Shown: in pieces, positions 18,802 through 62,260 of the stretch
How positions within the stretch are numbered: position 1 is the first letter of the stretch
How the letters are laid out: the number at the start of each line of letters is the position of its first letter
Assembly (NCBI RefSeq): GCF_016903815.1
Contig: NZ_CP069973.1
Source of the DNA: Escherichia coli
Lineage (GTDB): Bacteria; Pseudomonadota; Gammaproteobacteria; Enterobacterales; Enterobacteriaceae
Direction: 5' to 3' (one strand)
DNA: 64,000 bases
Program-made: the position numbers and the translations under genes
The notes under the pieces: generated by a model
What the model was told of the DNA's origin: nothing
Databases searched by the model: none
The model's input: the letters and a program-made list of their open reading frames with translations, nothing else

Positions 18802-18877
18802 GCCCGGATAGCTCAGTCGGTAGAGCAGGGGATTGAAAATCCCCGTGTCCTTGGTTCGATTCCGAGTCCGGGCACCA
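18802..18877 (+). tRNA. pheV: tRNA-Phe (GAA anticodon)
   Basis: 76-nt cloverleaf gcccggatagctcagtcggtagagcaggggattgaaaatccccgtgtccttggttcgattccgagtccgggcacca; position after yqgA. Confidence 0.95.
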
Positions 18878-18888
18878 AATTCATATAA

Positions 18889-18915
18889 ACGGACCTCCAC
18901 GGAGGTCCGTTTTTC
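18889..18915 (+). terminator. tRNA terminator
   Basis: acggacctccacggaggtccgtttttcg hairpin plus T-run. Confidence 0.6.
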
Positions 18916-19074
18916 GTTTCAGAACACCATGATTTAAGTGTTCTTCCTCCAAATCAATTCTACCGAACTCAACCAAATTCTCCCCACATCAACCTCATTG
19001 TGTGGGTATAATTGCGGGTATACCCCAGTTCGACAGAATTTGTACCCTCTTTAACGCATTCAGAAGGCTGAACT

Positions 19075-20337
19075 ATGGCACTGACTGACGCAAAAATCCG
19101 GGCTGCAAAGCCCACTGACAAGGCTTATAAACTTACTGACGGGGCCGGCATGTTCCTGCTGGTTCATCCTAATGGTTCCCGTTACTGGCGTCTCCGTTAT
19201 CGTATTCTGGGTAAGGAGAAGACTCTGGCACTTGGTGTGTATCCAGAAGTTTCTCTCTCCGAAGCTCGTACAAAACGGGATGAGGCCCGAAAACTGATTT
19301 CGGAGGGGGTTGACCCTTGCGAACAGAAAAGAGCTAAAAAAGTTGTCCCTGATTTACAGCTCTCTTTTGAACATATTGCACGACGCTGGCATGCCAGTAA
19401 TAAACAATGGGCACAATCACACAGCGATAAAGTACTCAAAAGCCTCGAGACACACGTTTTCCCCTTTATCGGCAACCGGGATATCACAACACTCAATACC
19501 CCGGACCTGCTTATCCCTGTTCGTGCTGCAGAAGCTAAACAAATTTATGAAATCGCCAGTCGTCTGCAGCAAAGAATATCTGCTGTAATGCGTTATGCCG
19601 TACAGTCTGGCATCATCAGATATAACCCGGCTCTGGATATGGCTGGTGCATTGACCACGGTAAAACGCCAGCATCGCCCTGCTCTGGATCTTTCACGCCT
19701 GCCTGAACTTCTGTCGCGTATTGACGGTTATAAAGGCCAGCCTGTCACCCGACTGGCAGTTATGCTGAATTTACTGGTTTTTATTCGTTCCAGTGAACTC
19801 AGATATGCCCGCTGGTCTGAAATTGATATTGACAATGCCATGTGGACTATTCCAGCCGAACGCGAACCTCTGCCGGGCGTAAAATACTCACACCGGGGCT
19901 CCAAGATGCGAACACCACATCTTGTGCCACTCAGCCAACAGGCTGTAGCCATACTGACAGAACTTCAGACATGGGCAGGTGAAAATGGTCTGATATTTAC
20001 GGGTGCACATGACCCGCGTAAACCAATCAGTGAAAATACTGTAAATAAAGCCCTCAGGGTGATGGGGTATGACACAACCCGGGAAGTCTGTGGCCATGGA
20101 TTCCGGGCGATGGCGTGCAGTGCATTGATTGAATCAGGTTTGTGGTCCCGCGATGCTGTGGAACGTCAGATGAGCCATCAGGAGCGTAATGGTGTACGTG
20201 CTGCGTATATCCATAAAGCAGAACATCTGGAAGAACGTCGACTGATGCTACAGTGGTGGGCAGATTTTCTGGATGCGAACAGAGAACAATGTATCAGCCC
20301 GTTTGAATATGCAAAGATTAACAATCCATTAAAATAG
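19075..20337 (+). CDS. P4-type tyrosine integrase
   Basis: 420-aa ORF, N-terminus MALTDAKIRAAKPTDKAYKLTDGAGMFLLVHPNGSRYWRLRYR typical of P4/CP4 integrases, adjacent to tRNA. Confidence 0.9.
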   Translation: MALTDAKIRAAKPTDKAYKLTDGAGMFLLVHPNGSRYWRLRYRILGKEKTLALGVYPEVSLSEARTKRDEARKLISEGVDPCEQKRAKKVVPDLQLSFEHIARRWHASNKQWAQSHSDKVLKSLETHVFPFIGNRDITTLNTPDLLIPVRAAEAKQIYEIASRLQQRISAVMRYAVQSGIIRYNPALDMAGALTTVKRQHRPALDLSRLPELLSRIDGYKGQPVTRLAVMLNLLVFIRSSELRYARWSEIDIDNAMWTIPAEREPLPGVKYSHRGSKMRTPHLVPLSQQAVAILTELQTWAGENGLIFTGAHDPRKPISENTVNKALRVMGYDTTREVCGHGFRAMACSALIESGLWSRDAVERQMSHQERNGVRAAYIHKAEHLEERRLMLQWWADFLDANREQCISPFEYAKINNPLK

Positions 20338-20433
20338 TAATCATCCCGGGCTGCCAGCCCGGGAATTGTTTTATGAATATTTTTCTTTGTGAGTAACCGG
20401 AAAAAAGATAGCGAAATAAATTACTTTAATGAA

Positions 20434-22038
20434 TTACTCCAGGGTTTCATTAAAGTTCTTTCGTAATACTTTGTAGTCAAACACGTTATGACTGGCATCA
20501 AAAACCACGGATTTCCCCTGCCAGCGGGTAATCACCTCCTCCGGCGTTTTCGGTTGAGCCGGTCTGGTTACGCCCATCCATGCATTAATCAGATAATCAT
20601 TATACGCAGTGGAAAAAACGCTGTTCACCGTCTGGCGATCGACATGCTCTCCCAGTGTCGGGCTGTACCAGATAAACATCGGAACATGATAAGCCTGCTG
20701 ACTGGGTTTTATTCCACCATGAAAATAGGCATGTTCTTTTGTCGGGTCATACTCCAGACCGTGATCTGAAAAATACATGACTGATGCCCGACGCGTTTCC
20801 AGCATGGCGAAAATCTGTCCCAACAAACTGTCGGTATAATGAATGGAATTATCGTAGCAGACTTCTTCTGTATCCAGCGGTTTAAACACGGCTTTATCTC
20901 TGGGCCAGTTACTGCAGACTGGCTCATGACTGCCCGTCAAATGCAGAACAATCAGTTTCCTGCCTCCCGGATTACTGTTCAGTGCTTCAGCCAGGTGTGG
21001 GAGCAGTAACTCATCATAGCCTCTGACATAAATTCTGTTTCTGGCCCGCATGGCGATACTGGCCACAGCCGTTCCGTTCTGTCGGAAAGCGGACTGCGCA
21101 CTGAGCCACCAGGTATCGAACCCCGCCTGATTCGCCATGTTGATAATGTTATCAGGGTAATTACGGATATCATGATGCAGTACACTATCGGCAGATAACG
21201 CCAGTGGAACAGCCAGCGCGGTGTAAGGTGCGCCACTGATTGCCTGAGTGAACAGTTTCAGTCGTGATTTCTGTTTCTGAAGCTCTGGTGTGGTAGGGCG
21301 CGAATACCCGTAAATGGACATGTTATCAGTCCTTGCAGATTCACCAATCACCAGAACAAATACGTCAGTGTTGTTATCCGTAATCACCAGATCGTAGTGA
21401 GGTATGGTATCAGCAATCGTCATTAATCTCTGATGCTCCTTTGCGGCCAGTGCAAAATAGTTCAGATTAAAGAAAGGGGTATATGTGGCAAACCGGGAAG
21501 CGACTATGTAAGGATCAACTTCATTTATTTGATACTGTTTCTTCAACGCAAACTGGAAGGAAGAATATAACGTTACTGTAATTAACAATAAAAATGTAAT
21601 TACCGTGACCTTTTCCGATGGCAATGAGGACGTTTTATTTATTGCTGAACAGAAGAACAATAAAAAGAGGATAATAAATGCGATAACATAAACAACATAC
21701 ATCCTGAACATTCTTATTGCTTCATCAGGATCTGTCTGTAGGATACTGATTGCAAAACCATCATTGAATGTGGTGTCAAATGTACACCATGAATACAGGC
21801 TGATACTGATATCTGCCGCGGTCAGTAATGTGAACGGAAAGGCCAGAATAAAACGCAGCGTAAGCGATTTCATCGCCTTAATAATAAGAATTGCCAGGAT
21901 AAAGAATAACACCCGGTAGATCAGATGTGCTCCTGAGGATACCAGGAGATTAGAAAGAGTAAAGACACCCACAGATAACACGAGGCACTTATCATTGCAA
22001 ATCCGCGGCCAGTGTATGAACGGAAGATTAATTTTCAT
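20434..22038 (-). CDS. sulfatase-family phosphoethanolamine transferase-like inner membrane protein
   Basis: N-terminal multi-TM region plus VLVIGESARTDNMSIYGY motif typical of PEtN transferases; start (MKINLPF) uncertain. Confidence 0.7.
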   Translation of the reverse strand: MKINLPFIHWPRICNDKCLVLSVGVFTLSNLLVSSGAHLIYRVLFFILAILIIKAMKSLTLRFILAFPFTLLTAADISISLYSWCTFDTTFNDGFAISILQTDPDEAIRMFRMYVVYVIAFIILFLLFFCSAINKTSSLPSEKVTVITFLLLITVTLYSSFQFALKKQYQINEVDPYIVASRFATYTPFFNLNYFALAAKEHQRLMTIADTIPHYDLVITDNNTDVFVLVIGESARTDNMSIYGYSRPTTPELQKQKSRLKLFTQAISGAPYTALAVPLALSADSVLHHDIRNYPDNIINMANQAGFDTWWLSAQSAFRQNGTAVASIAMRARNRIYVRGYDELLLPHLAEALNSNPGGRKLIVLHLTGSHEPVCSNWPRDKAVFKPLDTEEVCYDNSIHYTDSLLGQIFAMLETRRASVMYFSDHGLEYDPTKEHAYFHGGIKPSQQAYHVPMFIWYSPTLGEHVDRQTVNSVFSTAYNDYLINAWMGVTRPAQPKTPEEVITRWQGKSVVFDASHNVFDYKVLRKNFNETLE

Positions 22039-22159
22039 AATAATTGTGTAAAAGCGATATTTCTGTCCGGCACTGGTCGCTGAACATGCCGTGACAGGTG
22101 AATTCATTATTTTGAATAATCATAAAGCCGCCACAAATGTAGCGGCGTAAACAGGAGCG

Positions 22160-22496: not shown

Positions 22497-22763
22497 TTAC
22501 AGTTTATTCAGAATAAGGCAGGCGGCCCGGTTTAATGCAATAAACTCCTGCCAGCTGTACTGAGACTGATAATTCAGTAAATACTGGTCTTCAACCCGGC
22601 AAATCTGTGGGCGTTTATCATAAATTGCACACAAATGAGAATCAGTCTGATAGTGACGGCAAATACCGTCACCACGATCCAGACATTGCGTTTCACCCGC
22701 CCTGTTGACATGACGACAACAGGCCCCACACTGGTTACAGGGAAATGGAGGGTGTAATTTCAT
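22497..22763 (-). CDS. YkgJ-family Cys-cluster (zinc/iron-chelating) protein
   Basis: CNQCGACC ... C-x-C motifs in 88-aa ORF; 4-nt overlap with upstream gene. Confidence 0.7.
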   Translation of the reverse strand: MKLHPPFPCNQCGACCRHVNRAGETQCLDRGDGICRHYQTDSHLCAIYDKRPQICRVEDQYLLNYQSQYSWQEFIALNRAACLILNKL

Positions 22764-24331
22764 CGCTTATTTAACCAGTCACGAACAGAAGCCACATTTC
22801 CTGACTCAAACGGCAACGCAATCCCTCGTCGGCTGACTTCTTCTCTCAGCAGAAGTCCGCGCTCTATCTCACTGTTTACGCTATCCAGATGAAGTGAAAA
22901 ATGATTTAACGCGGCAGCATCAACAGAAAATTCCAGTGCAGTAAGTTCCACAAGATAGCGATCAAGTTCAGCATTGACTGCCTGAAAGTATTCCAGTGAC
23001 CGCTGGAATTTGTCCTTAAATTTGTCCAGAAATGCCCATACCCGCTGCATAACCTCGCTATATTCGAGATAATAATTCATCACCAGCCCGAGAATACCTG
23101 TCGTCAGCGCACCACAAAAGGCAGCAAGCTCTGAACCAAATGGAAAAATAAGGATCTGCGCCATCGCCTCATTTATCATCACCCCACCGGCAACAGCCAC
23201 ACCTGCTGCTATCAGTTTAGTGACCGCTTTGGCTAACTGCCCCGGCGATAATCCCTCCGGGTTAAATACCAGGACTTTAAAGGCCTGAACGAGGTTGTTC
23301 CACATTTCCCTGATAAGCCGGACAATCATTCTTTCCGTCGTCAGGAATATATTTAACAGCGTTGTGGTAATACCTGACAGTATCCCTCCGATGACACCAT
23401 CTTTAAAGGCAATTAAAAAAGAACTGAATTTTTCCTGTACTCGTTCCTGGCAGGCACGTAATGCTGACGTTATTTCGGACAGGCATTTGCCGGCGCAGAA
23501 TGAGTTCCGTTGCTGTCTGATAATATGCGGGATTCGTTCCCTCAGTTCGAACCAGATCTCGGCAAGAATAAGCCCCAGCATCTGTCGCGTCCCCATACGA
23601 AAACCGGAATTAAGTGAAGCACTGGCGACAGCAGTAGCAAACTTACTACTCAGGTAATAGCTCTGATTAATCGTGGTCTCGTATTTTTCCCGGGCATATT
23701 TATCAGCCCTTTCCATACGCTCAGTATCTGCATCAGCTTTTTTTCTCAGACTTATCAGACGTTTCTTTTCTTTTTCTGTCAGTGTTGCCTGAGATTCAAG
23801 CTCTGCTATCTGCCTTAACGTATCTTCTCTGTTTTTCTGCAGCGTGCAAATAAACGCATCCATTGAGTCTGCTTTCTTTGATTTATTGAGCGACTCATGA
23901 GTGAATGCCAGATTTGAAGCGTCATTTGCCAGTTCTGCACCATCCCGTTCAGCAAGAATTCTCCCCGGATCATCATGAATTTCTTTAGCGGAAATAATAT
24001 GATCCAGATTTTTTTTATCGTCTGAAGCAAACACTTCGCCTGTATATGCATCAGTAAGAGTCCCTGACTGATGTGCACGCTTTCCTTTCCGGTTCGTCGC
24101 GATGTAGTTCTCATGGCTGTGGTAATGATGAGAATCATAGTCGCCACGACCTTCATACCGCTGTCGCTCAGCCTCCGTGGCATAAATGCCATTACGCACA
24201 TTATGGATAGTGTCAACATCACCACCCTTACGATCATTTAGCAACAGAAAATCCAGCCCGAATGATGCAACCAGGCTCTTCACCATGGTCTGATGTAACT
24301 CTTCTGCCCAGTCAAATTTTTCCACATTCAT
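22760..24331 (-). CDS. hypothetical 523-aa protein, soluble His/Asp-rich N-domain plus C-terminal multi-TM region
   Basis: ORF translation; N-terminal motifs GGDVDTIHNV, DHIISAKEIHDDPGR; hydrophobic helices in C-terminal half. Confidence 0.6.
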   Translation of the reverse strand: MNVEKFDWAEELHQTMVKSLVASFGLDFLLLNDRKGGDVDTIHNVRNGIYATEAERQRYEGRGDYDSHHYHSHENYIATNRKGKRAHQSGTLTDAYTGEVFASDDKKNLDHIISAKEIHDDPGRILAERDGAELANDASNLAFTHESLNKSKKADSMDAFICTLQKNREDTLRQIAELESQATLTEKEKKRLISLRKKADADTERMERADKYAREKYETTINQSYYLSSKFATAVASASLNSGFRMGTRQMLGLILAEIWFELRERIPHIIRQQRNSFCAGKCLSEITSALRACQERVQEKFSSFLIAFKDGVIGGILSGITTTLLNIFLTTERMIVRLIREMWNNLVQAFKVLVFNPEGLSPGQLAKAVTKLIAAGVAVAGGVMINEAMAQILIFPFGSELAAFCGALTTGILGLVMNYYLEYSEVMQRVWAFLDKFKDKFQRSLEYFQAVNAELDRYLVELTALEFSVDAAALNHFSLHLDSVNSEIERGLLLREEVSRRGIALPFESGNVASVRDWLNKR

Positions 24332-24377
24332 GTTATTTCACTTCTTGTAAAGCCGGGCTTTAACGCCCGGTAAATCA

Positions 24378-25457
24378 TTAACTCCGGGATGAAAAATCAT
24401 CAAATTTCACAACCGAACTGGCCAGTACATCATCCAGCTCTTCCTTATTAATAACATTCATTCCATTATCATCCTTTTCCATTTCAATAACGTTATCTTT
24501 TATCACAGCCTCACCATTTTCCTGTTTCCGCGGTTTAAACAGTGGCGTTGTAATAATATCCGTCATAATAGCGGCCAGTGAATATCCATGGTCAATAAGC
24601 ATAATGATTTCATCTGATACATTGATATCCTGTTGTTCTGTAATAACAGAATGCATGGATTTAAGCGGCTCAAAATAGTGTTTAATAAATACAGCATGCA
24701 TTCTGTTCAGCGCAGCGAGAATTTCATCAACGTATTGATTAACTTTTGCAAAATGCTCCCGGGCCAGATTCATTTTCTTAACTGCCCGTTCAACTTTGCA
24801 GGCACACTGATGGGCATTTTCAAGAGCTTTCGTCGCGTGTCTGTCGTAAGCCCAGCCCGCAATGGCAATCAACGGTGCAGCCACTGCGGTGCCTAATACC
24901 ATTGCGCCGCCGGCCATTCCCATGCCCCCTGCCGCGAGAGAGCCCCCTCCAATTGCCGCCATCGTCGCGTTATAAGCCGCGGCACCAGAAAGCGCTGCAA
25001 TGGGTGTACCTGTGGAAGCCGCAGCAAATGCCATCACTCCGCTATACACAGCAAAACCCGCAGCAGCCCCGGAAACTCCGGCAGCTACGACCGTACTGAG
25101 ATATTCTGTTGCTGAAATGGCCAGGTTATGAATCTTATTGATGTTATGTTGCGGGACACTCAGTTTCAGGTCTTTATTGCCCTCTTTTTCCAGACGCGCC
25201 AGGAGCTCAGCAGCAATCCTGTCGAACTCACTGAAATCTTTACCAATCTCAAGCTCTTTATTTCCGAGCGTTGTTAATTTTGATGATGTCTGAGCTTCAG
25301 CCTGCTCAAATTTTCCTTTATGCTCCTCGTAACGCTCTTTTGCTTTTTCGAGCACATCCTCTGCTTCTGACTTTTTTTGATATCCATCGTAAGCTTTTTT
25401 TCCGCCGAATGCCGCAGCGCCGGCAGCCACACCCAAAATAATGAAAGGTAACGCCAT
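24378..25457 (-). CDS. hypothetical membrane protein with Gly/Ala-rich glycine-zipper-like TM segment
   Basis: N-terminal TM MALPFIILGVAAGAAAF, coiled-coil-like charged region, Gly/Ala-rich stretch; AGGAGG RBS. Confidence 0.6.
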   Translation of the reverse strand: MALPFIILGVAAGAAAFGGKKAYDGYQKKSEAEDVLEKAKERYEEHKGKFEQAEAQTSSKLTTLGNKELEIGKDFSEFDRIAAELLARLEKEGNKDLKLSVPQHNINKIHNLAISATEYLSTVVAAGVSGAAAGFAVYSGVMAFAAASTGTPIAALSGAAAYNATMAAIGGGSLAAGGMGMAGGAMVLGTAVAAPLIAIAGWAYDRHATKALENAHQCACKVERAVKKMNLAREHFAKVNQYVDEILAALNRMHAVFIKHYFEPLKSMHSVITEQQDINVSDEIIMLIDHGYSLAAIMTDIITTPLFKPRKQENGEAVIKDNVIEMEKDDNGMNVINKEELDDVLASSVVKFDDFSSRS

Positions 25458-25495
25458 TCTTTTCCTCCTGTACAGGTTGCTTTATCATCAGTCAA

Positions 25496-25509
25496 CTGAA
25501 ATATTTCAG
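25496..25509. promoter_or_regulatory. 14-bp perfect palindrome CTGAAATATTTCAG between regulator and downstream gene
   Basis: Seen directly; overlaps regulator stop codon, about 40 bp upstream of next start. Confidence 0.3.
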
Positions 25510-26402
25510 GAAACATTCTCAGCGGTGAGGTATTTTCCTAACATTGTTAACACGGCTTCTTTCAACCATACTGGTTCAATAATTTCAACATTCGGTAGCC
25601 AGTATAAAATCAACGGGATAATTTGATTTTTATGTGCAGCCTTGCATGACAGCGTAATGCCATTATCATGTCTGTGTAGCAATTGCTGGTAAGGAAGTAA
25701 GTCCCGTCGCAAAAAATAATGGGCGATATTACTGTGAATGAACAACACTACATCAAATGTTTTGTCGCTCACCCACGGGTCACATGACTCACTTATCAGT
25801 GACTGTATTTCCTCACTCTTTGCAAACTTTTCTTTTTTTATATCCAGCCATTTTATTTTAGCTAATGAAAACGACTTTAACTTGTTCTCTTCAGTAGCCA
25901 GCAAATACCATATACTTCTCTGATTAGTTAATTTATAGGGATGAACGATTCTGGTCTTACCGGCATATGCAATCTGACAAATATTACTGTTGCGGATCGC
26001 TTTTTCAAGAACATCAAGATATTTTCTTAAATCATCCCTGATAGTGTGCTCAGGGTTATGAAACTGAACACGAATATGCTTTTCGGTTGCCCTGTTTTCT
26101 AATTTCTGCCAGAAACCTTCATCCCGTTCAGGAAAAATCGCATCAGTATCCAGTAACCTGGCCAGAGATTTGTGCAGTGATCCTTTGCTCTGGTTTCCTG
26201 CTCTTGCTGAAATAAGCCGGTATTTTCCATCGCCACAGGCTTCAATAAAGGGAGAAAGCATATTCAGATCACGATATGCTGTTCGCTCAGTGATGTTGTA
26301 TTTTTTCATCAAATTATGACGACTGACCACGCCATAATTCTGTAATTCAACAAGGATATCAATCAAACGCTCCGCTGAGCGATTTCTCGTTGAGTCAGCC
26401 AT
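25506..26402 (-). CDS. WYL-domain transcriptional regulator (HTH-WYL-WCX type)
   Basis: N-terminal HTH-like segment, WYL signature RSIWYLLATEENKLKSFSLAKI. Confidence 0.75.
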   Translation of the reverse strand: MADSTRNRSAERLIDILVELQNYGVVSRHNLMKKYNITERTAYRDLNMLSPFIEACGDGKYRLISARAGNQSKGSLHKSLARLLDTDAIFPERDEGFWQKLENRATEKHIRVQFHNPEHTIRDDLRKYLDVLEKAIRNSNICQIAYAGKTRIVHPYKLTNQRSIWYLLATEENKLKSFSLAKIKWLDIKKEKFAKSEEIQSLISESCDPWVSDKTFDVVLFIHSNIAHYFLRRDLLPYQQLLHRHDNGITLSCKAAHKNQIIPLILYWLPNVEIIEPVWLKEAVLTMLGKYLTAENVS

Positions 26403-26821: not shown

Positions 26822-27559
26822 TCAGAAGTTATATGTTGCACCTAACATAAACTCATTACTTCTGACATCAACAGAGGATTTATATTTAGCGCCATCCTCA
26901 TCTTTATAAGTCAGAGTGGAATCCCCTGCATCCAGATACCGGTAACTGAGGTCAAGGCTGAAATCCTGCGTCACATCGTATTTAACACCGACACCAAGGC
27001 TCCATGCCAGGTTATTTTCGTATTTTGACGCTGAAGCTGAATATACTTCACTGCCTGCCGGACTGTTATCGGTATATATGTACGAAGTTTTATGATGAAC
27101 CCGAGCATAACCCAGACCAGCAGATATCCATGGCGTGAATGCACTGCTGTTTCTGAAATCATAATACGCATTCAGCATCAGCGTGTTTACACTGAGCTTG
27201 TTCTGTGCATCATCAAACTCGGCACCACCGACACTTTCCCAATAACTCAGACGATATTTTGATTCAGCGTTACCGCGGCCATAAAACTCCACTTCAGTAC
27301 GCACCGGCACATTGTAGTGCTGATAAAAATCGTATCCCACCGCAAGGCCTGCGCCAAAAACCGTATCACTTTTGTCACCGCCTTTATATTTATCCGCCCA
27401 TGCCCCTTCACCATCAACGAAACGTTGCTCTGAAAGTGACATAACAGAAGCACCTGCTTTACCGGTCACATAAAAGCCTGTTTTGCTCTCATCAGCCAGA
27501 GTCTGGGCCGAAAACATGCCTGCCATTGCAAGCGCTGAAACCGCAATAACCTTTTTCAT
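26822..27559 (-). CDS. outer membrane beta-barrel protein (Tia/Hek/Hra-like adhesin-invasin family)
   Basis: Signal peptide MKKVIAVSALAMAGMFSAQTLA, alternating aromatic beta-strand pattern, C-terminal ...LGATYNF. Confidence 0.7.
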   Translation of the reverse strand: MKKVIAVSALAMAGMFSAQTLADESKTGFYVTGKAGASVMSLSEQRFVDGEGAWADKYKGGDKSDTVFGAGLAVGYDFYQHYNVPVRTEVEFYGRGNAESKYRLSYWESVGGAEFDDAQNKLSVNTLMLNAYYDFRNSSAFTPWISAGLGYARVHHKTSYIYTDNSPAGSEVYSASASKYENNLAWSLGVGVKYDVTQDFSLDLSYRYLDAGDSTLTYKDEDGAKYKSSVDVRSNEFMLGATYNF

Positions 27560-29910: not shown

Positions 29911-29935
29911 GACGAGGATCCGTAATTCAAAACCC

Positions 29936-32715: not shown

Positions 32716-32775
32716 ATAACCCTCTAATTCATTGTTATTTCAGTAAAAACTTCACATCTGTGAGGTTGTCTGGTA

Positions 32776-34317
<1,542 letters not shown>

Positions 34318-52883: not shown

Positions 52884-53100
52884 TCAGACAAAGCAATGTG
52901 TATAACAATACTTAATGAAAACACTTGTAGAATTGTTTATGAAAATACGTGTATGTCTGGTAAAACACTTAGTAGAAAATACGTGTATAACACTTACTGA
53001 AATGCTTAGTAAAAATACTTAGTAAAATATGTGTAGAATTATCTATTTAAAAAGATATGTATATAACACTTAATAAAAACATGTGTATATAGTATCATAC
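52884..53100. repeat. iteron-like array of degenerate direct repeats in AT-rich intergenic DNA
   Basis: Recurring GTGTATAACA(A/C)T..A.TGAAAA and TGTAGAATT.T.TAT..AAAA units, 2-3 copies each. Confidence 0.4.
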
Positions 53101-53730
53101 CGACATTCTCAACATCTTCAGACTTCCATACATACTGGGTGTTGATTTCTCACTTTTACAGCCAGCATGGAGTTTTCTGTCCTAAAAACAGAGCAGATTT
53201 ACTCTGGAATTATTTTTCTACCCCCGTATTTCAGGCCCCAGAAAAGACAATCCGAAGCAAACCGTTTGTCAGCCTCCATATCATCTTTTACCCCCGGAAA
53301 GTGATCGCGTTTACAACCAGAATGACAGCCATACTGATTATGTCGTCTCCCGGCCCCCTTCACATATAACATGCATGTCTGTCATTGCTTACTGCTCCAC
53401 ATGACCGGATTTCACATACAGGATGCACATTCAGTGTTTTTATCGCTACTATAACAGACAGATTACTGTCGTCTTTACTCTTCAGATTGTTAATCTGACC
53501 ACAAGAACAGCCGAACGGCAAAACGCCCTCCACAAGGGGCACATGAACCATAGTTGATAGCATGTTTTTCCTAATCAAGGAATAGTTCAGGAATATTTTA
53601 TTGCATTAATAACTGGCGAATAATCGTTCTGTGAACACAAAATGCTTTTATTTGTAAATTTTATTGCATTGCACTCGTTTTATTGATATGGGGTTTAATA
53701 ACAGATAACCCGGAAAGAAGGAGAAAACAG

Positions 53731-54522
53731 ATGACATTACGGATTAACGATCAGGGGCGAGATAAACAGAATCAATTTTTATCGAAAAATGGAGAAAATC
53801 TGAATTCGTTAAAATCGCGTCATGTGCAGGATAGGCATTTACCTGAATGGCTTAAGGATAAAGTTGCAGCATTCTGGTTTTGTCTGGTGATAAAGGATAT
53901 GAAAGTGTCAGGGAGCAGTTACTATGAACTTACCATGCAACTTCCCACTTCTGAAGAATCTGTTTGCATCAGTAAGCTGTCATCCTCAACCCATGAGATT
54001 CGGCTGGAGATCATCAGGCGATGGATTGATAGTGTAGCGCAGATAGAAACGGAAGCTTTTACTAAAAATCTCGTTGATGCCATCTATAAAAACTGGAAGG
54101 AAATCGGGAACAAAAACCAGGCCACATGGCTTAAAAAAAATCCGGAACAACTCGAGTGGGCATGGAAATATATTAACATTCGTATTCCCGAGTCACATTT
54201 AACCTGGTTTTGCCCCGTCAATAACGAAGAGAAACGCATTGCCATCTTAGCATTGCTTAAAATACTGTATCCCGGAGATATACCATGCCAGTACAACGAC
54301 AAAGAGTTTCATGTCGGGATCTGCGCTGAAGAACATTTTTACAGAAGAATGCACGACGCTTTCAGAAAACAGTTTATCGACGGGAAAAAAGATAAACGGG
54401 TACAAATTAACGTAAAGATATCACCGTCCGCAAAAAGCGCTCTGGACAGACTGACCAGAGCGAGGAAAACAACACAGCAGGCTATTCTGGAACAACTGAT
54501 TCTGAACGGTAGACTGGATTAA
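53731..54522 (+). CDS. hypothetical protein with C-terminal RHH/HTH-like tail
   Basis: RBS aaggag then ATG; tail ...SAKSALDRLTRARKTTQQAILEQLIL; contains an A8 homopolymer at 54133-54140. Confidence 0.5.
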   Translation: MTLRINDQGRDKQNQFLSKNGENLNSLKSRHVQDRHLPEWLKDKVAAFWFCLVIKDMKVSGSSYYELTMQLPTSEESVCISKLSSSTHEIRLEIIRRWIDSVAQIETEAFTKNLVDAIYKNWKEIGNKNQATWLKKNPEQLEWAWKYINIRIPESHLTWFCPVNNEEKRIAILALLKILYPGDIPCQYNDKEFHVGICAEEHFYRRMHDAFRKQFIDGKKDKRVQINVKISPSAKSALDRLTRARKTTQQAILEQLILNGRLD

Positions 54523-55505
54523 CTTTCACTACTTCCACTCCTGGCAGTTTTCCTCTTTTTGTAGTGTCTCCCGGCTGCAGGCATCAGGTACTTTTCCGTC
54601 ATTTCGTTGCAGAACTCTTCAATGTAGTTAATCAGCTTCTGGTGTGCTTTCACCTTTTCTTCCCCGGGGGACGCTTTCAGATAAATGTCCTCCTTTTCCA
54701 CAAGTGTATTTATAAACTCTCCCGGACATCCCTGGTTATAAAGCAACGTGAAAAACAACACATTCCCCAGTCTCTCCAGTAACTGCGATTTAACCCTGTA
54801 TTGTTGTTTGCTGAGGATTGATTGTTTTATAAAGCTTAGTCTTGTTAAAAGTTGTTCAAATCCCGGTTCCAGTTTAAAAACAGATTTTAATACCAGGGAC
54901 TGATACTCCTGATAAAAAAGTTCAAACGTCGGGGATGCAGACTGACGAACAGATTTGGCTACAACCCATGGACTAAATCCCATGATTGGGATTTCCTTCG
55001 CTCCCTCCAGCGCACTCAGAGGTAGTCCAGCAATCCATGCGTCCAGCTTAGCCGAATCAATATCCCCGCTCAAAACCTCATACAAACTGCCCGTGAACGG
55101 TTGAGTCGGTTTTTTTGTTGTTTTACCTTCTGATTGCCTGAATCCATCCACTTTTCTCCGGATATTACGCGGAATCAGCATAAAAGGCGGGACATTAAGT
55201 GATAAACGTTTACCCGTCATACGATACCAGTGGCCCACCTCAACCTTAATCCGTGTATCTGGCCTTGTATCTGGCCTTGTATCTGGCCTTAGCTCAAGTG
55301 CTATTATGTTAAGCAGGTACAGATAACGCACCGTATAACAGTCAAAATGTTTCTCCGGATCAAACGGCTCTGATCGTTCTCTGCACACAAGTCCGCTGCG
55401 CTTCAGTATTCGCTGGGTATCTTTCCAGGCCTTACTCTGAAGAATGGTGGTAACTCTGGCTTTATTAGCAATCTCACGCAGCGCATCACTTTGTTGTGCC
55501 GTCAT
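54519..55505 (-). CDS. hypothetical protein containing (RPDT)x3 tandem repeat
   Basis: ORF with RBS ggaggg before MTAQQSD; convergent with, and 4-nt overlapping, the previous gene. Confidence 0.5.
   Translation of the reverse strand: MTAQQSDALREIANKARVTTILQSKAWKDTQRILKRSGLVCRERSEPFDPEKHFDCYTVRYLYLLNIIALELRPDTRPDTRPDTRIKVEVGHWYRMTGKRLSLNVPPFMLIPRNIRRKVDGFRQSEGKTTKKPTQPFTGSLYEVLSGDIDSAKLDAWIAGLPLSALEGAKEIPIMGFSPWVVAKSVRQSASPTFELFYQEYQSLVLKSVFKLEPGFEQLLTRLSFIKQSILSKQQYRVKSQLLERLGNVLFFTLLYNQGCPGEFINTLVEKEDIYLKASPGEEKVKAHQKLINYIEEFCNEMTEKYLMPAAGRHYKKRKTARSGSSES
55253..55292. repeat. 12-bp in-frame tandem repeat (tggccttgtatc, about 3 units)
   Basis: Seen directly; encodes RPDTRPDTRPDT on the minus strand. 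Confidence 0.6.
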
Positions 55506-55611: not shown

Positions 55612-56496
55612 ATGTCATTCAGCCATTCTTCCCTCTCTGCACAAGTGAAATCATATCTGACGTTTCTTCCTGAAGAAATTCGCCAGAAAATCCTTGAACA
55701 TCTCCACGGTGTTATTCATTACGAGCCCGTGATTGGCATTATGGGTAAATCCGGCACAGGCAAAAGCAGCCTGTGTAATGCCATTTTTCAGTCCCGTATC
55801 TGCGCCACGCATCCCCTGAACGGCTGCACCCGCCAGGCTCATCGTCTTACCCTGCAGCTCGGTGAACGCAGAATGACGCTGGTCGATCTGCCCGGCATTG
55901 GTGAAACACCGCAGCATGATCAGGAATACCGGACACTTTATCGTCAGCTGCTACCGGAACTGGATCTGATTATCTGGATCCTACGGGCTGATGAACGTGC
56001 GTATGCTGCCGATATTGCCATGCATCAGTTTTTACTGAATGAAGGTGCAGATCCCTCGCGTTTTCTGTTTGTTCTCAGCCATGCCGATCGCGTGTTTCCT
56101 GCTGAAGAATGGAACGACACAGAAAAATGCCCGTCCCGTCAGCAGGCGCTCTCACTGGCGACGGTGACAGCCCGGGTGGCAACCCTGTTCCCTTCATCAT
56201 TTCCGGTACTCTCCGTTGCTGCACCTGTCGGCTGGAACCTTCCGGCGTTTGTGTCGCTGATGATCCACGCACTGCCACCACAGGCAACCAGCGCGGTGTA
56301 TTCACATATCCGGGGAGAAAACCGCTCTGAACAGGCCCAGAAACACGCACAACAGACTTTTGGTGACGCCATCGGGAAAAGCTTTGACGCTGCCGTTGTC
56401 CGGTTCAGTTTTCCGGCCTGGATGTTACAGCTTCTCCGTAAAGCCCGGGACCGCATTATCCACCTGCTGGTCACACTGTGGGATCGTCTGTTCTGA
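55612..56496 (+). CDS. YeeP/YkfA/YfjP-family GTPase
   Basis: P-loop GIMGKSGTGKSS; CP4-type backbone position. Confidence 0.8.
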   Translation: MSFSHSSLSAQVKSYLTFLPEEIRQKILEHLHGVIHYEPVIGIMGKSGTGKSSLCNAIFQSRICATHPLNGCTRQAHRLTLQLGERRMTLVDLPGIGETPQHDQEYRTLYRQLLPELDLIIWILRADERAYAADIAMHQFLLNEGADPSRFLFVLSHADRVFPAEEWNDTEKCPSRQQALSLATVTARVATLFPSSFPVLSVAAPVGWNLPAFVSLMIHALPPQATSAVYSHIRGENRSEQAQKHAQQTFGDAIGKSFDAAVVRFSFPAWMLQLLRKARDRIIHLLVTLWDRLF

Positions 56497-56614
56497 GCGC
56501 CCCGGAGTCCCCCGTGGCAACCGTATACCTTTACACGACAACGGATTACGGTAACCACTGCCGTATACCGTCTGTCATTATCAATAACACGCTCTTTAAT
56601 TTCAGAGGTCAGTC

Positions 56615-57292
56615 ATGAATACCAGAATTCTTTTTCCCCTGCTGTTCACTGTGGCATCCTTCTCCGCCTCCGCCGGCAACTGGGCTGTCAAAAACGGCTG
56701 GTGTCAGACCATGACGGAAGATGGTCAGGCACTGGTAATGCTGAAAAATGGCACGATTGGTATTACCGGCCTGATGCAGGAATGCCCGAATGGCGTACAG
56801 ACGCTCCTGGGCAGCCGTATCAGTATTAACGGTAACCTGATCCCCACATCACAAATGTGTAATCAGCAGACGGGATTCAGGGCTGTTGAGGTGGAAGTCG
56901 GACAGGCGCCGGAAATGGTCAAAAAAGCCGTTCACTCCATAGCAGAGCGTGATGTGTCCGTTTTACAGGCATTTGGTGTACGAATGGAATTCACCCGCGG
57001 TGATATGCTGAAGGTCTGTCCGAAATTTGTCACATCACTTGCCGGTTTTTCCCCGAAACAGACACCCGCCATTAATAAAGATTCCGTCCTGCAGGCTGCC
57101 CGGCAGGCATACGCCCGGGAATATGACGAGGAAACAACAGAAACCGCTGATTTTGGCTCTTACGAAGTAAAAGGCAATAAGGTTGAGTTTGAAGTGTTCA
57201 ATCCTGAAGACCGTGCGTACGACAAAGTGACCGTCACGGTTGGTGCTGACGGTAATGCCACCGGTGCCAGCGTTGAATTTATCGGAAAATAG
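56615..57292 (+). CDS. hypothetical secreted protein
   Basis: Signal peptide [20 protein letters not shown]. Confidence 0.55.
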
Positions 57293-57297
57293 CCGGT

Positions 57298-57531
57298 ATG
57301 TCGGACTGTCACCCTGTTTTATTGCCCGAAGGCCCTTTCTCACGCGAACAGGCGGTTGCCGTCACAACAGCTTACCGCAATGTGCTTATTGAAGATGACC
57401 AGGGAACGCATTTCCGGCTGGTTATCCGTAATGCTGAAGGTCAGTTGCGCTGGCGATACTGGAATTTTGAACCTGATGCCGGAAAACAGCTAAATCCGCA
57501 TCTCGCCAGTGAGGGAATTCTCAGGCAATAA
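57298..57531 (+). CDS. hypothetical small protein
   Basis: 77-aa ORF only. Confidence 0.4.
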
Positions 57532-57620
57532 ACGTCTTCATTTCATCCATCAGGCCGCGTCTTCTCCGGGAGACGCGGCCTTTTCATTTATACCGCTAAC
57601 TCATTCATAAGGAGCAAAGT

Positions 57621-58439
57621 ATGCAATTAGCCAGTCGTTTTGGTCATGTAAATCAGATCCGTCGGGAGCGCCCACTGACACGCGAAGAACTGATGTACCA
57701 CGTCCCGAGTATTTTTGGAGAAGACCGGCACACCTCCCGCAGTGAACGGTATGCGTACATTCCCACCATCACCGTCCTGGAAAATCTGCAGCGGGAAGGC
57801 TTTCAGCCGTTCTTCGCCTGCCAGACCCGTGTGCGCGACCAGAGCCGTCGGGAATATACCAAACACATGCTGCGTCTGCGGCGGAGCGGACAGATAACCG
57901 GCCAGCATGTGCCTGAAATTATTCTGCTCAACTCCCATGACGGTTCATCCAGCTACCAGATGTTACCCGGATATTTTCGTGCCATCTGCACCAATGGCCT
58001 GGTCTGCGGTCAGTCGCTGGGAGAAGTCCGGGTGCCACACCGGGGAAACGTGGTGGACAGGGTGATTGAAGGTGCTTACGAAGTGGTGGGCGTTTTTGAC
58101 CGGATTGAGGAAAAGCGTGATGCCATGCAGTCGCTGCTCTTACCGCCACCGGCACGTCAGGCACTGGCTCAGGCGGCACTGACTTACCGTTATGGTGACG
58201 AACATCAGCCCGTCACCACTGCCGACATTCTGACACCACGACGCCGGGAGGATTACGGTAAGGACCTGTGGAGTGCTTATCAGACCATCCAGGAGAATAT
58301 GCTGAAAGGCGGGATTTCCGGCCGCAGTGCAAAAGGAAAACGTATCCATACCCGGGCCATTCACAACATCGACACCGACATTAAGCTCAATCGCGCATTG
58401 TGGGTGATGGCGGAAACGCTGCTGGAGAACCTGCGCTGA
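57621..58439 (+). CDS. DUF932-family protein (YfjQ/YafZ-like)
   Basis: Translation and CP4-type backbone position. Confidence 0.65.
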   Translation: MQLASRFGHVNQIRRERPLTREELMYHVPSIFGEDRHTSRSERYAYIPTITVLENLQREGFQPFFACQTRVRDQSRREYTKHMLRLRRSGQITGQHVPEIILLNSHDGSSSYQMLPGYFRAICTNGLVCGQSLGEVRVPHRGNVVDRVIEGAYEVVGVFDRIEEKRDAMQSLLLPPPARQALAQAALTYRYGDEHQPVTTADILTPRRREDYGKDLWSAYQTIQENMLKGGISGRSAKGKRIHTRAIHNIDTDIKLNRALWVMAETLLENLR

Positions 58440-58515
58440 TGCCGTTTACCTGAATCACGTCTGTCCCTGCCCCCGAGCCTTCTTCATTCATTTGCTTTTT
58501 ATAAGGAATAATATC

Positions 58516-59001
58516 ATGACAACCTCTTCGCATAATTCCACCACACCTTCTGTTTCCGTAACTACTGCATCAGGGAATAACCAGTCTCAACTGGTTGCCA
58601 CTCCCGTCCCTGATGAACAGCGCATCAGCTTCTGGCCGCAGCACTTTGGCCTCATTCCACAGTGGGTGACCCTGGAGCCCCGCGTCTTCGGCTGGATGGA
58701 CCGTCTGTGCGAAGACTACTGCGGTGGTATCTGGAATCTGTACACCCTGAACAACGGCGGGGCATTTATGGCACCCGAACCGGATGACGATGATGACGAA
58801 ACATGGGTACTGTTCAATGCCATGAACGGTAACCGCGCTGAAATGAGCCCGGAAGCTGCCGGTATTGCCGCCTGTCTGATGACGTACAGTCATCATGCCT
58901 GTCGTACGGAGTGTTATGCCATGACGGTCCATTATTACCGGCTGCGGGATTACGCCCTGCAGCATCCGGAATGCAGCGCCATTATGCGCATCATCGACTG
59001 A
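58516..59001 (+). CDS. antirestriction protein (KlcA/ArdB family, YfjX/YafX-like)
   Basis: RBS aaggaa then MTTSSHNS...; acidic DDDDDE patch; backbone position. Confidence 0.75.
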   Translation: MTTSSHNSTTPSVSVTTASGNNQSQLVATPVPDEQRISFWPQHFGLIPQWVTLEPRVFGWMDRLCEDYCGGIWNLYTLNNGGAFMAPEPDDDDDETWVLFNAMNGNRAEMSPEAAGIAACLMTYSHHACRTECYAMTVHYYRLRDYALQHPECSAIMRIID

Positions 59002-59016
59002 ATGGAGGCAGGGACA

Positions 59017-59493
59017 ATGCAGCAGCTTTCCTTTCTGCCCGGAGAAATGACGCCCGGCGAGCGCAGTCTCATTCTGCGGGCTCTGAAAACCCTGGACCGC
59101 CATCTTCATGAACCCGGTGTGGCCTTCACCTCCACCCGTGCGGCACGGGAATGGCTGATTCTGAACATGGCGGGACTGGAGCGTGAAGAGTTCCGGGTGC
59201 TGTATCTGAATAACCAGAATCAGCTGATTGCCGGTGAAACCCTCTTCACCGGCACCATCAACCGCACGGAAGTCCATCCCCGGGAAGTGATTAAACGCGC
59301 CCTGTATCACAATGCCGCTGCCGTGGTGCTGGCACACAATCACCCGTCAGGTGAAGTCACACCCAGCAAGGCAGACCGCCTTATTACGGAACGTCTGGTA
59401 CAGGCACTGGCCCTGGTGGATATCCGGGTGCCGGACCATCTGATAATCGGTGGCAGCCAGGTTTTCTCCTTTGCGGAACACGGTCTGCTTTAA
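59017..59493 (+). CDS. RadC-like JAB-domain protein (YeeS/YfjY-like)
   Basis: JAMM-like motif HNHPSGEVTPSKAD. Confidence 0.8.
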   Translation: MQQLSFLPGEMTPGERSLILRALKTLDRHLHEPGVAFTSTRAAREWLILNMAGLEREEFRVLYLNNQNQLIAGETLFTGTINRTEVHPREVIKRALYHNAAAVVLAHNHPSGEVTPSKADRLITERLVQALALVDIRVPDHLIIGGSQVFSFAEHGLL

Positions 59494-59561
59494 CCCGTCA
59501 CCGTCACAACCACATCACACCTGTTTTCACTTTTATCTTCTGTCTTCAGAGGTATCACACT

Positions 59562-59783
59562 ATGAAAATCATCACCCGTGGTGAAGCCATGCGTATTCAC
59601 CGTCAGCATCCTGCATCCCGTCTTTTTCCGTTCTGTACCGGCAAATACCGCTGGCATGGTGGCACTGAAGCGTATACCGGTCGTGAAGTGCAGGATATTC
59701 CCGGTGTGCTGGCTGTATTTGCAGAACGCCGTAAGGACAGTTTTGGCCCGTATGTCCGGCTGATGAGTGTCACCCTGAACTGA
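59562..59783 (+). CDS. DUF987 protein (YeeT-like)
   Basis: 73-aa ORF in conserved position between radC-like and antitoxin genes. Confidence 0.7.
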   Translation: MKIITRGEAMRIHRQHPASRLFPFCTGKYRWHGGTEAYTGREVQDIPGVLAVFAERRKDSFGPYVRLMSVTLN

Positions 59784-59945
59784 TGTTCCGTCACCCGGGA
59801 AACGAGTACGACCAGATGACCTCAGACGCCGCTGTGGATGAGGCCATTCTCATCAACGAATACACCTTCACCGAAACCGGTCAGCGCGCCGGCTGACCTG
59901 TCATCATTAAACCATTCTTAACCACTTTTCAGAGAGGATTTTATC

Positions 59946-60314
59946 GTGTCAGACAAACTCTCCGGGATAACTCATCCCGACGACAATCACGACCGCCCCT
60001 GGTGGGGGCTTCCCTGCACAGTGAGGCCCTGTTTTGGCGCTCGTCTGGTGCAGGAGGGTAACCGCCTGCATTACCTTGCCGACCGCGCCGGTATCAGAGG
60101 CCGCTTCAGCGACGCAGATGCATACCATCTGGACCAGGCCTTTCCGCTGCTGATGAAACAACTGGAACTCATGCTCACCAGCGGTGAACTGAATCCCCGA
60201 CATCAGCATACCGTCACGCTGTATGCGAAAGGGCTGACCTGCGAAGCCGACACCCTCGGCTCCTGTGGTTACGTTTATCTGGCTGTTTATCCGACGCCCG
60301 AAACGAAAAAGTAA
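59946..60314 (+). CDS. cbeA: type IV antitoxin CbeA/YeeU family
   Basis: Translation DDNHDRPWWGLPCTV...LVQEGNRLHYLADRAGI matches YeeU/YfjZ family. Confidence 0.8.
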   Translation: MSDKLSGITHPDDNHDRPWWGLPCTVRPCFGARLVQEGNRLHYLADRAGIRGRFSDADAYHLDQAFPLLMKQLELMLTSGELNPRHQHTVTLYAKGLTCEADTLGSCGYVYLAVYPTPETKK

Positions 60315-60403
60315 ACCACCGGAATAACCTTCTGCTCCGGCCTGGTGCTTTCACCACGCCACTTTTCCATTTTTCATCTCTGCATATCAGGAAAACCTTC
60401 AGT

Positions 60404-60781
60404 ATGAAAACATTACCCGATACACACGTACGGGAGGCATCGAGCTGCCCGTCTCCCGTCACCATCTGGCAGACTCTGCTCTCCCGACTACTGGGCCAGC
60501 ATTACGGCCTTACACTGAATGACACACCGTTCGCCGATGAACGTGTGATTGAGCAGCATATTGAAGCTGGCATTTCACTGTGTGATGCGGTGAATTTTCT
60601 CGTGGAAAAATACGCGCTGGTGCGTACCGACCAGCCGGGATTCAGCACTTGTCCCCGCTCTCAGTTAATAAACAGTATTGATATCCTCCGGGCTCGCCGG
60701 GCGACCGGCCTGATGACCCGCGACAACTACAGAACGGTAAATAACATTACCCTGGGTAAACATCCGGGGGCGAAACAATGA
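60404..60781 (+). CDS. cbtA: type IV toxin CbtA/YeeV family (cytoskeleton-binding)
   Basis: Translation ...LLSRLLGQHYGLTLNDTPFADERVIEQHIEAGISLCDAVNFLVEKYALVR matches YeeV/YpjF. Confidence 0.8.
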   Translation: MKTLPDTHVREASSCPSPVTIWQTLLSRLLGQHYGLTLNDTPFADERVIEQHIEAGISLCDAVNFLVEKYALVRTDQPGFSTCPRSQLINSIDILRARRATGLMTRDNYRTVNNITLGKHPGAKQ

Positions 60782-61200
60782 AACTGGCCCTGACGCTGGA
60801 AGCCGACAGCATTAATGCGCAGGCGCTGAACATGGGGCGCATTGTCGTTGACGTCGATGGTATTAAGCTCGCTGAACTGATTAACAAAGTCGCTGAAAAC
60901 GGTTATTCACTCCGCGTGGTGGATGAACATGACGCTACCGAAACACCGGCGACTTCTGCCAGCCCTCATCAGTTGCCGGAAGACAATACAGTGATACAGA
61001 GCGTGATGCCATTAACCACTGAAACAGCGCTGGATATCCTCATTGCGTGGCTGCAGGACAATATTGACTGCGAATCGGAAATTATCTTTGACAACGATGA
61101 GGACAAAACGGATTCGGCAGCACTGTTGCCCTGTATTGAACAGGCCAGGGAGGATATCCGTACCCTGCGCCAACTGCAGCTTCTGTACCAGAACCGGTGA
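60778..61200 (+). CDS. YeeW-like protein
   Basis: 140-aa ORF overlapping the toxin stop; backbone position. Confidence 0.6.
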   Translation: MKLALTLEADSINAQALNMGRIVVDVDGIKLAELINKVAENGYSLRVVDEHDATETPATSASPHQLPEDNTVIQSVMPLTTETALDILIAWLQDNIDCESEIIFDNDEDKTDSAALLPCIEQAREDIRTLRQLQLLYQNR

Positions 61201-61284
61201 GTCTTACTCACCAGACTTCATTCCACTGACGCCAGCCTGAACAGGGCAGGCGTTTTCATTTATCTGCAAAAAGGAATATCGATT

Positions 61285-62127
61285 ATGTCTGAAATCACAG
61301 CCCCCCGTCCGGAAGTGGTCAACGGGCATACGGACGTTATCTGCTCAACCAGTATCCGCCACATTCTGGCTGTACGAAAGAGTACACTGCTGCAAATCGA
61401 CACACTTATCCGGCAACTGGCTGAAATATCAGCAATGACAGAAAGTATTGGCGGTAAAGCCGCCCCGGGCTGGGCCATGAAACAGGATTTTCGCTACGGC
61501 TGCTGGCTGATGGAGAAACCGGAAACCGCAATGAAAGCCATCACACGCAATCTCGATCGCGAAATCTGGCGTGACCTGATGCAACGTTCAGGGATGCTTT
61601 CCTTAATGGATGCACAGGCCCGTGATACATGGTACCGGTCACTGGAGTACGATAATTTTCCGGAAATCAGTGAAGCGAACATTCTGATCACATTTGAACA
61701 ACTACACCAGAATAAGGATGAGGTGTTTGAGCGAGGGGTGATCAACGTCTTCAGGGGACTGAGCTGGAATTACAAAACCAATTGCCCCTGCAAATTTGGC
61801 AGTAAAATTATCGTCAACAACCTGGTGAGGTGGGACCGGTGGGGGTTTCATCTTATCACCGGGCAACAGACTGACCGACTCGTCGACCTGGAAAGAATGC
61901 TACATCTGTTCAGCGGCAAACCGATCCCCGACAACCGGGAAAACATCACTATTCGTCTGGATGGTCACATCCAGTCCGTTCAGGGTAAAGAGCGCTATGA
62001 AGACGAGATGTTCATCATTAAATACTTTAAGAAGGGATCTGCACACATCACTTTCAAAAGGCTGGAACTGATTGACAGAATTAACGATATAATAGCCAAG
62101 TACTTTCCTTCTGTGCTCTCAGCCTGA
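61285..62127 (+). CDS. DUF4942-like protein
   Basis: 280-aa ORF at the distal end of the CP4-type backbone. Confidence 0.55.
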   Translation: MSEITAPRPEVVNGHTDVICSTSIRHILAVRKSTLLQIDTLIRQLAEISAMTESIGGKAAPGWAMKQDFRYGCWLMEKPETAMKAITRNLDREIWRDLMQRSGMLSLMDAQARDTWYRSLEYDNFPEISEANILITFEQLHQNKDEVFERGVINVFRGLSWNYKTNCPCKFGSKIIVNNLVRWDRWGFHLITGQQTDRLVDLERMLHLFSGKPIPDNRENITIRLDGHIQSVQGKERYEDEMFIIKYFKKGSAHITFKRLELIDRINDIIAKYFPSVLSA

Positions 62128-62237
62128 TCCCGAGTGTGATTCCCTTTCGATATCAAAAGGGACTGCGGGTATAATTGAGGGTACATTTTTAATCAAACCA
62201 AATAAATTATATTAATATCAATATGATAAAAGAAATT

Positions 62238-62260
62238 TTCGATTCCGAGTCCGGCACCAC
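62238..62260 (+). repeat. attR-like direct repeat: imperfect copy of tRNA-Phe 3' end
   Basis: ttcgattccgagtccgg-cacca versus tRNA ttcgattccgagtccgggcacca (one base missing). Confidence 0.65.

Follow-up and report, generated by a model that had tools for sequence, protein, structure and literature searches.

A composite genomic island at pheV in Escherichia coli and an internal integrase remnant as a substrate for recombination

The 64,000-nucleotide stretch of Escherichia coli DNA analyzed here (NCBI RefSeq assembly GCF_016903815.1, contig NZ_CP069973.1; hereafter the window) carries a 43.4-kb genomic island (GI) directly behind the tRNA-Phe gene pheV. This GI-pheV is probably a composite of at least two integrase-led elements in series, brought together most likely by site-specific tandem accretion and trimmed afterwards by deletions associated with insertion sequences (IS). 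It contains one intact integrase gene at its head and, in the same orientation, a 156-bp remnant of a distinct integrase allele in its interior. In one other complete genome, that of strain 2017.04.02CC, resident integrase and remnant have served as partners in a recombination that removed at least 21 kb. The island class, its exact attR and the modular mosaic have already been published (Nhu et al., 2024). The island of the window is thus an undescribed member of a well-known class, and what is new, modestly so, is only the natural recombinant between integrase and remnant.

The boundaries of the island could be determined to the nucleotide. ARAGORN finds a single tRNA gene in the window, a tRNA-Phe(GAA) on the + strand (18802-18877), which is identified as pheV because annotated relatives have it next to yqgA. 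The 3'-terminal 23 nt of the gene (TTCGATTCCGAGTCCGGGCACCA, 18855-18877) are the core of the left attachment site attL. Alignment reveals a distal, 22-nt copy of this 3' end on the + strand (62238-62259; TTCGATTCCGAGTCCGGCACCA), from which one G has been deleted and which equals the right attachment site attR in Table 1 of the GI-pheV survey (PMC11537424). The initial annotation had placed the distal boundary at this copy but ran it to position 62260; the copy is real, comprises 22 of the 23 nt and ends one base earlier. The 17-nt core of the repeat occurs at two sites in the window, pheV and attR, even when 3 mismatches are allowed, and two core matches were obtained in 0/100 shuffles.

A comparison with island-lacking genomes had been proposed alongside the initial annotation. 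A chimera of the sequence up to the tRNA end and the sequence past the distal repeat was searched in 5,426 complete E. coli genomes, and it was matched as a single piece in 209 of them (99.1-99.4% identity among the matches listed). In the island-free strain 20 the gene order is yqgA, pheV, an IS110 remnant, kpsF and kpsE. In a three-way alignment the last base of the tRNA and the last base of the repeat mark the junctions precisely, with flanks that are 98.8% and 99.6% identical, while the sequences on the island side of both junctions are unrelated. Because the empty site joins pheV directly to the post-repeat sequence, the island is 18878-62259. It sits immediately 3' of pheV next to yqgA, with an adjoining intP4 integrase gene, a partial copy at attR and a precise empty site, and thereby belongs to the GI-pheV class.

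A terminator-like hairpin supplied by the island (18887-18912, + strand, from the junction alignment) now lies 3' of pheV, and the native pheV terminator is found beyond attR at about 62270-62295. The latter is part of the chromosomal flank outside the island (62260-64000, + strand). This flank further contains an IS110-family transposase remnant between attR and kpsF (62458-62640) and kpsF itself, which starts at 63451, 1.2 kb beyond the repeat and past the IS110 remnant; the kps locus had correctly been expected to begin there. As the IS110 remnant also occurs in island-free genomes, it belongs to the chromosomal/kps flank and not to the island.

The island is headed by the resident int gene (19075-20337, + strand), which encodes an intact P4-type tyrosine integrase of 420 aa. 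Its arm-binding, central and catalytic domains are all present (Pfam Arm-DNA-bind_3, Phage_int_M and Phage_integrase), and it shares 94-96% nt identity with other pheV/pheU integrases. The integrase remnant (40886-41041, + strand) was located by a repeat finder and local alignment and corresponds to codons 277-328 of a second P4-type allele. It aligns with 19903-20058 of the resident gene over 156 nt with 92.3% identity, in the same orientation and in register, and its translation differs at 5 of 52 aa. The internal integrase copy described initially, with 157 bp up to position 41042, is therefore real but one nucleotide shorter. The NCBI annotation pipeline (PGAP) also calls it an integrase pseudogene. 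An apparent breakpoint at window position 19903, where the integrase repeat starts, seemed to be shared by many genomes; it was rejected as a search artefact that joins the remnant match to the main match.

The closest full-length relatives of the remnant are found at pheU (MINF_1D) and at pheV (10R). They are 94.8-95.4% identical to it, and since the remnant is nearer to these alleles than to the resident gene, it represents a separate intP4-family allele. Duplication of the resident integrase gene in place, followed by divergence, would explain the shared orientation, the shared register and the 92% identity. Such an origin is highly improbable, though: the remnant resembles the integrases of other strains more than its supposed parent, it is invariant across 64 genomes of different hosts and lineages, and its 12 differences from the resident gene in 156 bp, set against none between the copies of different strains, are incompatible with recent decay in place. 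Searched against 5.8 billion proteins, the 52-aa translation matches short fragments only. An exact remnant-specific 45-mer has a sole match among 100,044 species-representative genomes, namely the same remnant in a metagenome-assembled genome of an Enterobacteriaceae member.

Together with its junction on the mkoA side, the remnant recurs in 64-69 complete genomes, which come from human, dog, poultry and water sources, and no copy examined deviates in sequence. The concern that the integrase fragment might be an assembly artefact, raised at the outset, is thus dispelled by independent complete assemblies. More generally, the idea that the repeat, the remnant or both are artefacts or chance matches has a negligible probability, given the shuffling result above, the published attR and the recurrence of the remnant with its junctions.

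The two unit types of the window can be recognized separately in other strains. One such strain is STEC711. Starting from pheV, it contains a 396-aa integrase, ter, ibr and Zorya clusters, a complete type VI secretion system (T6SS), a backbone with a yee module, and ParDE. Next follows an internal 23-nt repeat (TTTCATTCCGAGTCCGGGCACCA), and behind it an intact 420-aa integrase, an AAA protein, an eptA-like gene, an outer-membrane protein (OMP) gene and an H-NS gene. The 420-aa integrase is 95% identical to the resident integrase of the window from the repeat onward, and the OMP/H-NS pairs of both islands share 70-78% nt identity. The right half of the window is collinear with the first island of STEC711, with 98% identity for tssGF and 90-96% for the backbone and yee module. 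The two STEC711 integrases belong to different families (56% nt identity). Judged by this organization, STEC711 is a genuine tandem array at pheV that holds the two unit types of the window in the opposite order, and it is useful as an intact example of tandem accretion at this site. Type II Zorya and ibrAB are among its cargo, and the internal repeat lies at about 10610 of the compared locus.

Strain 042 presents another variant. Here pheV is followed by int, eptA and the OMP gene, then directly, at a position corresponding to that in the window, by an integrase remnant (3' end, 79% identity), and then by an island with helicase, ibr, T6SS and backbone. The remnant of 042 is located at 5104-5305 of the compared locus and precedes a TerB-N/ATPase/DEAD-helicase trio. 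The int-eptA-OMP unit also heads a pheU island, so that the left core of the window is known both from pheU and as the repeat-bounded second unit of STEC711. The right block is the distal part of the first STEC711 island and stands alone at pheV in 2017.04.02CC, the latter being a derived state.

From these comparisons a probable course of events can be proposed. A P4-type integrase would have inserted its element at the 3' end of pheV, leaving the tRNA gene intact at attL and the 22/23-nt copy at attR. The older island would have been of the T6SS/yee type, today represented by the integrase remnant, the IS debris, the tssGF remnant, an AlpA/YfjJ backbone, the yee module and attR. The second integrase-headed element would comprise int, the eptA-like gene, the OMP gene and the H-NS gene, together with scr, candidate defence genes and Mokosh as cargo. 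The two elements would have come to stand in series at pheV, most likely through site-specific tandem accretion. Deletions associated with IS2, IS66 and IS1203 would then have removed the internal repeat as well as the greater part of both the second integrase and the T6SS. The initial proposal of at least two elements in tandem with a decayed second integrase is thereby supported, with the orientation of the remnant, the collinear T6SS-type block, the left core at pheU, the STEC711 array and the 042 remnant pointing in the same direction. We infer the arrival of the two units by site-specific integration, and more tentatively its order, from such comparisons.

Several observations weigh against this scenario. 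An internal copy of the tRNA 3' end is present in STEC711 but none occurs in the window (17-mer, 3 mismatches allowed), and with about 88% of the second integrase gone, only 156 bp of it are left. Owing to these two losses, tandem accretion can be deduced from comparison only. The cargo between the H-NS gene and the remnant is bounded by IS elements, and scr, the restriction-modification genes and Mokosh may have come by other routes. Moreover, the T6SS island of STEC711 is led by the 396-aa integrase, which is only 58% identical to the remnant, so the remnant does not represent the integrase type of that island. A full-length integrase of the remnant's allele was found neither in the 5,426 complete E. 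coli genomes nor in the 100,044 species-representative genomes. Finally, the scenario does not account for the left junction of the remnant with the region upstream of mkoA; a search for mkoA in another context showed that in complete genomes it never occurs without the remnant.

These points bear on an alternative in which the island was originally single and the remnant was imported within DNA from the pheV or pheU island of another strain, by homologous or IS-mediated recombination. This would be a module exchange without a second site-specific integration. GI-pheV modules are indeed known to be gained and lost through recombination (described in the GI-pheV survey, PMC11537424). The IS debris on one side of the remnant, its abrupt junction on the other, the missing internal repeat and the occurrence of the nearest full-length alleles at both pheU and pheV would all suit an import. 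Nevertheless, it is considered unlikely. The orientation of the remnant fits a tandem unit, the remnant precisely marks the proximal limit of a block known elsewhere as the distal part of a complete island, and real tandem arrays of these unit types exist at pheV. Two integrase-led elements in series, followed by IS-associated deletions, are therefore still preferred as the origin of the composite.

Whatever its origin, the remnant acts as a substrate for homologous recombination. The junction predicted for a recombination between the resident int gene and the remnant was constructed and searched in complete genomes. Exactly one of them, 2017.04.02CC (NZ_AP027788.1), matches the predicted junction from end to end, with 99.5% identity. 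In this strain pheV is followed by an int gene truncated at nt 984 and then by the right half from the IS2 remnant onward, including IS66 and the tssGF stub, and the entire left module is missing. Within the 156-bp homology the first 7 diagnostic sites are of the resident type and the last 5 of the remnant type, which places the crossover in an interval equivalent to 20004-20030 of the window. Over the following 3 kb the strain matches the window at 100% identity. This switch marks the locus as the outcome of homologous recombination in which the resident integrase and the remnant were the partners. At least 21 kb were lost in the accompanying deletion, after which no intact integrase is left. 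The chimeric integrase and its junction with the IS2 remnant are located at 19203-20918 of the compared locus, and the 5' 420 nt of this integrase belong to a third, slightly different allele.

It was also considered whether 2017.04.02CC might represent the ancestral single island. This was rejected, as the type of the single-nucleotide polymorphisms switches inside the 156-bp homology and 7 extra substitutions would be needed in a remnant that is otherwise invariant. Given the invariance of the remnant elsewhere and the 7 sites at which it differs from the chimera, 2017.04.02CC is derived rather than ancestral. In this strain a single recombination accounts both for the loss of at least 21 kb and for the disabled integrase. 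Tentatively, integrase remnants left by tandem accretion might serve as built-in deletion handles: the proximal unit would be lost in one step, and the truncated chimeric integrase would fix what is left of the island at its site. A cycle of accretion and recombination between integrases, if it recurred, could explain mosaic intP4 alleles, the swapping of modules and the integrase-less, 'anchored' pheV islands across E. coli.

A second route of erosion is provided by IS1203. The window contains an intact copy of this IS3-family element (36173-37482, - strand), which was defined by its 25-nt inverted ends and by comparison of its flanks with strains 2779 and JNEC-KY178. In strain 2779 three IS1203 copies are present, and the ~8 kb between the outer two are gone from the window. 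To its left, the copy in the window has the flank found at the scrK-side copy, and to its right that of the mkoA copy. By its flanks it is a recombinant of two copies, marking a deletion of at least 8 kb. GCTG is found on both sides of the element (36169-36172 and 37483-37486), and at the right junction 3 nt are missing from strain 2779. A simple insertion with GCTG as target duplication was nonetheless rejected: both parental copies had inserted into GCTG targets, and the apparent duplication is therefore coincidental.

On its right side, IS1203 cuts into the gene of a type I Mokosh MkoA (37454-40678, - strand; PADLOC MkoA, E=2e-188, profile positions 2-1030 of 1607). The protein is interrupted at residue 1074 (of 1652 aa), by which the NERD and kinase part is kept and the helicase part is lost together with mkoB. 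Type I Mokosh consists of MkoA (kinase and helicase) and the PLD nuclease MkoB (Millman et al., bioRxiv 10.1101/2022.05.11.491447). With its truncated MkoA and without mkoB, the window does not encode a type I Mokosh system. In JNEC-KY178, on the other hand, PADLOC finds both proteins intact; in relatives MkoA has 1652 aa and MkoB 515 aa (12871-19376 of the compared locus). JNEC-KY178 and Ecol_517 represent fuller islands, with intact MkoA/MkoB, a NotI-family restriction-modification pair and a sugar-utilization block. At the other extreme, strain 5283 has lost everything from IS1203 through IS66.

The differences between the window and strains 2779, 5283 and JNEC-KY178 are deletions that end at IS1203 or IS66. 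Overall, six strains (2779, 5283, JNEC-KY178, Ecol_517, 042 and STEC711) differ by whole modules at IS boundaries, in agreement with the serial mosaic with IS elements at its module junctions that had been predicted. The IS3, IS2-like and IS66 sequences named in that prediction are all real, but the IS3-family member, IS1203, is intact and not debris. The natural series JNEC-KY178, 2779, window, 5283 and 2017.04.02CC documents a stepwise erosion of defence and metabolic cargo, driven by IS elements and by homology. Ecol_517 is a further swap of the proximal unit. At 5821-14746 of the compared locus, an integrase of 394 aa and an operon for raffinose (with alpha-galactosidase, MFS transporter, GH32 hydrolase and porin) take the pheV-proximal place and precede an eptA-scr block that matches the one in the window.

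The relation of the island to known systems is mostly one of close agreement. In their survey of GI-pheV, Nhu et al. (PLoS Genet, PMC11537424) describe intP4 as the only conserved gene and modules that are split by IS elements. They also name yee and flu modules and, for islands of the intP4.5 type, a T6SS. The attR TTCGATTCCGAGTCCGG-CACCA is listed there for 042, 536, APEC O1, S88, ED1a, H10407, 55989 and others. The window shares with these islands the tRNA gene, the adjoining intP4, the identical imperfect attR, the IS-separated mosaic and the distal yee module, and with some types the T6SS. Its combination of scr regulon, disrupted Mokosh, orphan ThsB, PDC candidates and tssGF stub differs from the modules named in sections 6-8 and the Discussion of that survey. 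The word 'sucrose' does not occur in the text of the survey, nor do 'tandem' and 'second integrase', and internal integrase remnants or tandem arrays are not discussed in the parts of it that were compared. For the most part the window thus bears out textbook knowledge of genomic islands, at a well-studied hotspot beside the kps capsule locus, and leaves the current understanding unchanged.

The concept of tandem accretion as such is well established (Pavlovic et al., 2004, cited in PMC4891358, an article that applies it to groups III and XI of the Klebsiella pneumoniae asn-tDNA islands). As described there, two integrase-headed units stand in series at one tRNA gene, with integrases that are not each other's closest relatives. 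The window would correspond to this arrangement, but it lacks the att repeat between the units and has lost ~88% of its second integrase; STEC711 is the intact version at pheV. The backbone of the right half further resembles the CP4-type cryptic elements. In E. coli K-12 these are CP4-57, CP4-44 and CP4-6, and their gene order includes an AlpA-family regulator, YfjJ/YagK, a YfjP/YeeP GTPase, DUF932, an antirestriction protein, RadC and YeeU/CbtA, all of which have counterparts in the window. Unlike in those elements, the tRNA site is a different one, and the backbone in the window is split from its integrase by IS debris and the T6SS stub.

The anatomy of the island was assigned from the RefSeq annotation of 99.9-100% identical DNA (strains 5283 and 2779) and from profile searches. 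Behind the resident int gene, the left half contains an eptA/cptA-like phosphoethanolamine transferase gene (20434-22107, - strand), with a Pfam Sulfatase match and with matches to NCBIfam phosphoethanolamine-transferase models that all fall short of their cut-offs. It is followed by a candidate defence cluster of three genes (22760-26402, - strand; PADLOC and Pfam), which encode a PDC-M40B-like protein, a PDC-M09A-like protein and a WYL/WCX regulator. This co-oriented trio lies between the eptA-like and OMP genes; its PDC-M40B-like gene is annotated in RefSeq as 'cobalamin adenosyltransferase' and has no Pfam match. The beta-barrel OMP (26822-27559, - strand) and the H-NS paralogue (27878-28351, + strand) come next.

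The sucrose phosphotransferase system regulon scrR-scrB-scrA-scrY-scrK (28903-35381, - strand) was assigned from the annotation of 99.9%-identical DNA of strain 5283. An element that reportedly integrates in pheV or pheU is CTnscr94. It is a sucrose conjugative transposon (Hochhut et al., 1997, cited in PMC11251922), and the common feature, an scr regulon on an element at a tRNA-Phe gene, is given here as a lead only. In contrast to CTnscr94, the whole island is devoid of annotated conjugation genes, as judged from near-identical relatives.

The right half begins, behind the integrase remnant, with a frameshifted IS2 transposase remnant (41078-41750, - strand; NCBIfam IS2 TnpB, E=2e-69), a pseudogene in RefSeq. 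Next to it are IS66-family tnpA, tnpB and a truncated transposase (41880-43496, + strand). The T6SS is reduced to a 2.45-kb tssG/tssF remnant (43465-45917, - strand). About 26 kb of the cluster have been deleted in the window. The intact T6SS of the pheV island in STEC711 matches this stub with 98.2% nt identity; to the chromosomal T6SS genes of most E. coli the stub is only ~71% identical. Full-length TssF proteins with 99% aa identity to it are encoded by some E. coli, and those of Enterobacter and Klebsiella reach 95%.

The CP4-like backbone (45904-55505) consists of a DNA-binding gene fragment, a Gp2-like gene, an AlpA-family helix-turn-helix gene (46937-47170, - strand) and two YagK/YfjJ genes. 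It is interrupted by a 3.1-kb insert (48055-51183), absent from the STEC711 backbone, that holds a YagK/YfjJ gene and the gene of a ThsB-like TIR protein (50180-50884, + strand). The ThsB profile is matched over its full length (PADLOC, E=2.8e-128). Thoeris needs ThsB and ThsA; none of the neighbours of thsB matched ThsA, a decayed thsA not having been searched for. In the AT-rich 1.5-kb flanks of thsB no open reading frame exceeds 85 aa, except those overlapping thsB and the flanking YagK/Gp2-family genes. The island is completed by a YfjP/YeeP-type GTPase and the yee module (55612-62127, + strand), comprising DUF932, an antirestriction protein, RadC, DUF987, the YeeU/CbtA toxin-antitoxin pair, DUF957 and, as the last gene, DUF4942.

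The blocks of the island also differ in base composition. The left modules have a GC content of 41-48%, IS66 and the T6SS stub one of 55-58%, the surroundings of thsB 37-40% and the yee module 51-55%. Outside the island, the core genome upstream of pheV contains REP/BIME-type palindromic repeats (TGCCGGATGCGGCGTGAAC...) at 2404-2501, 6851-6948 and 10137-10171.

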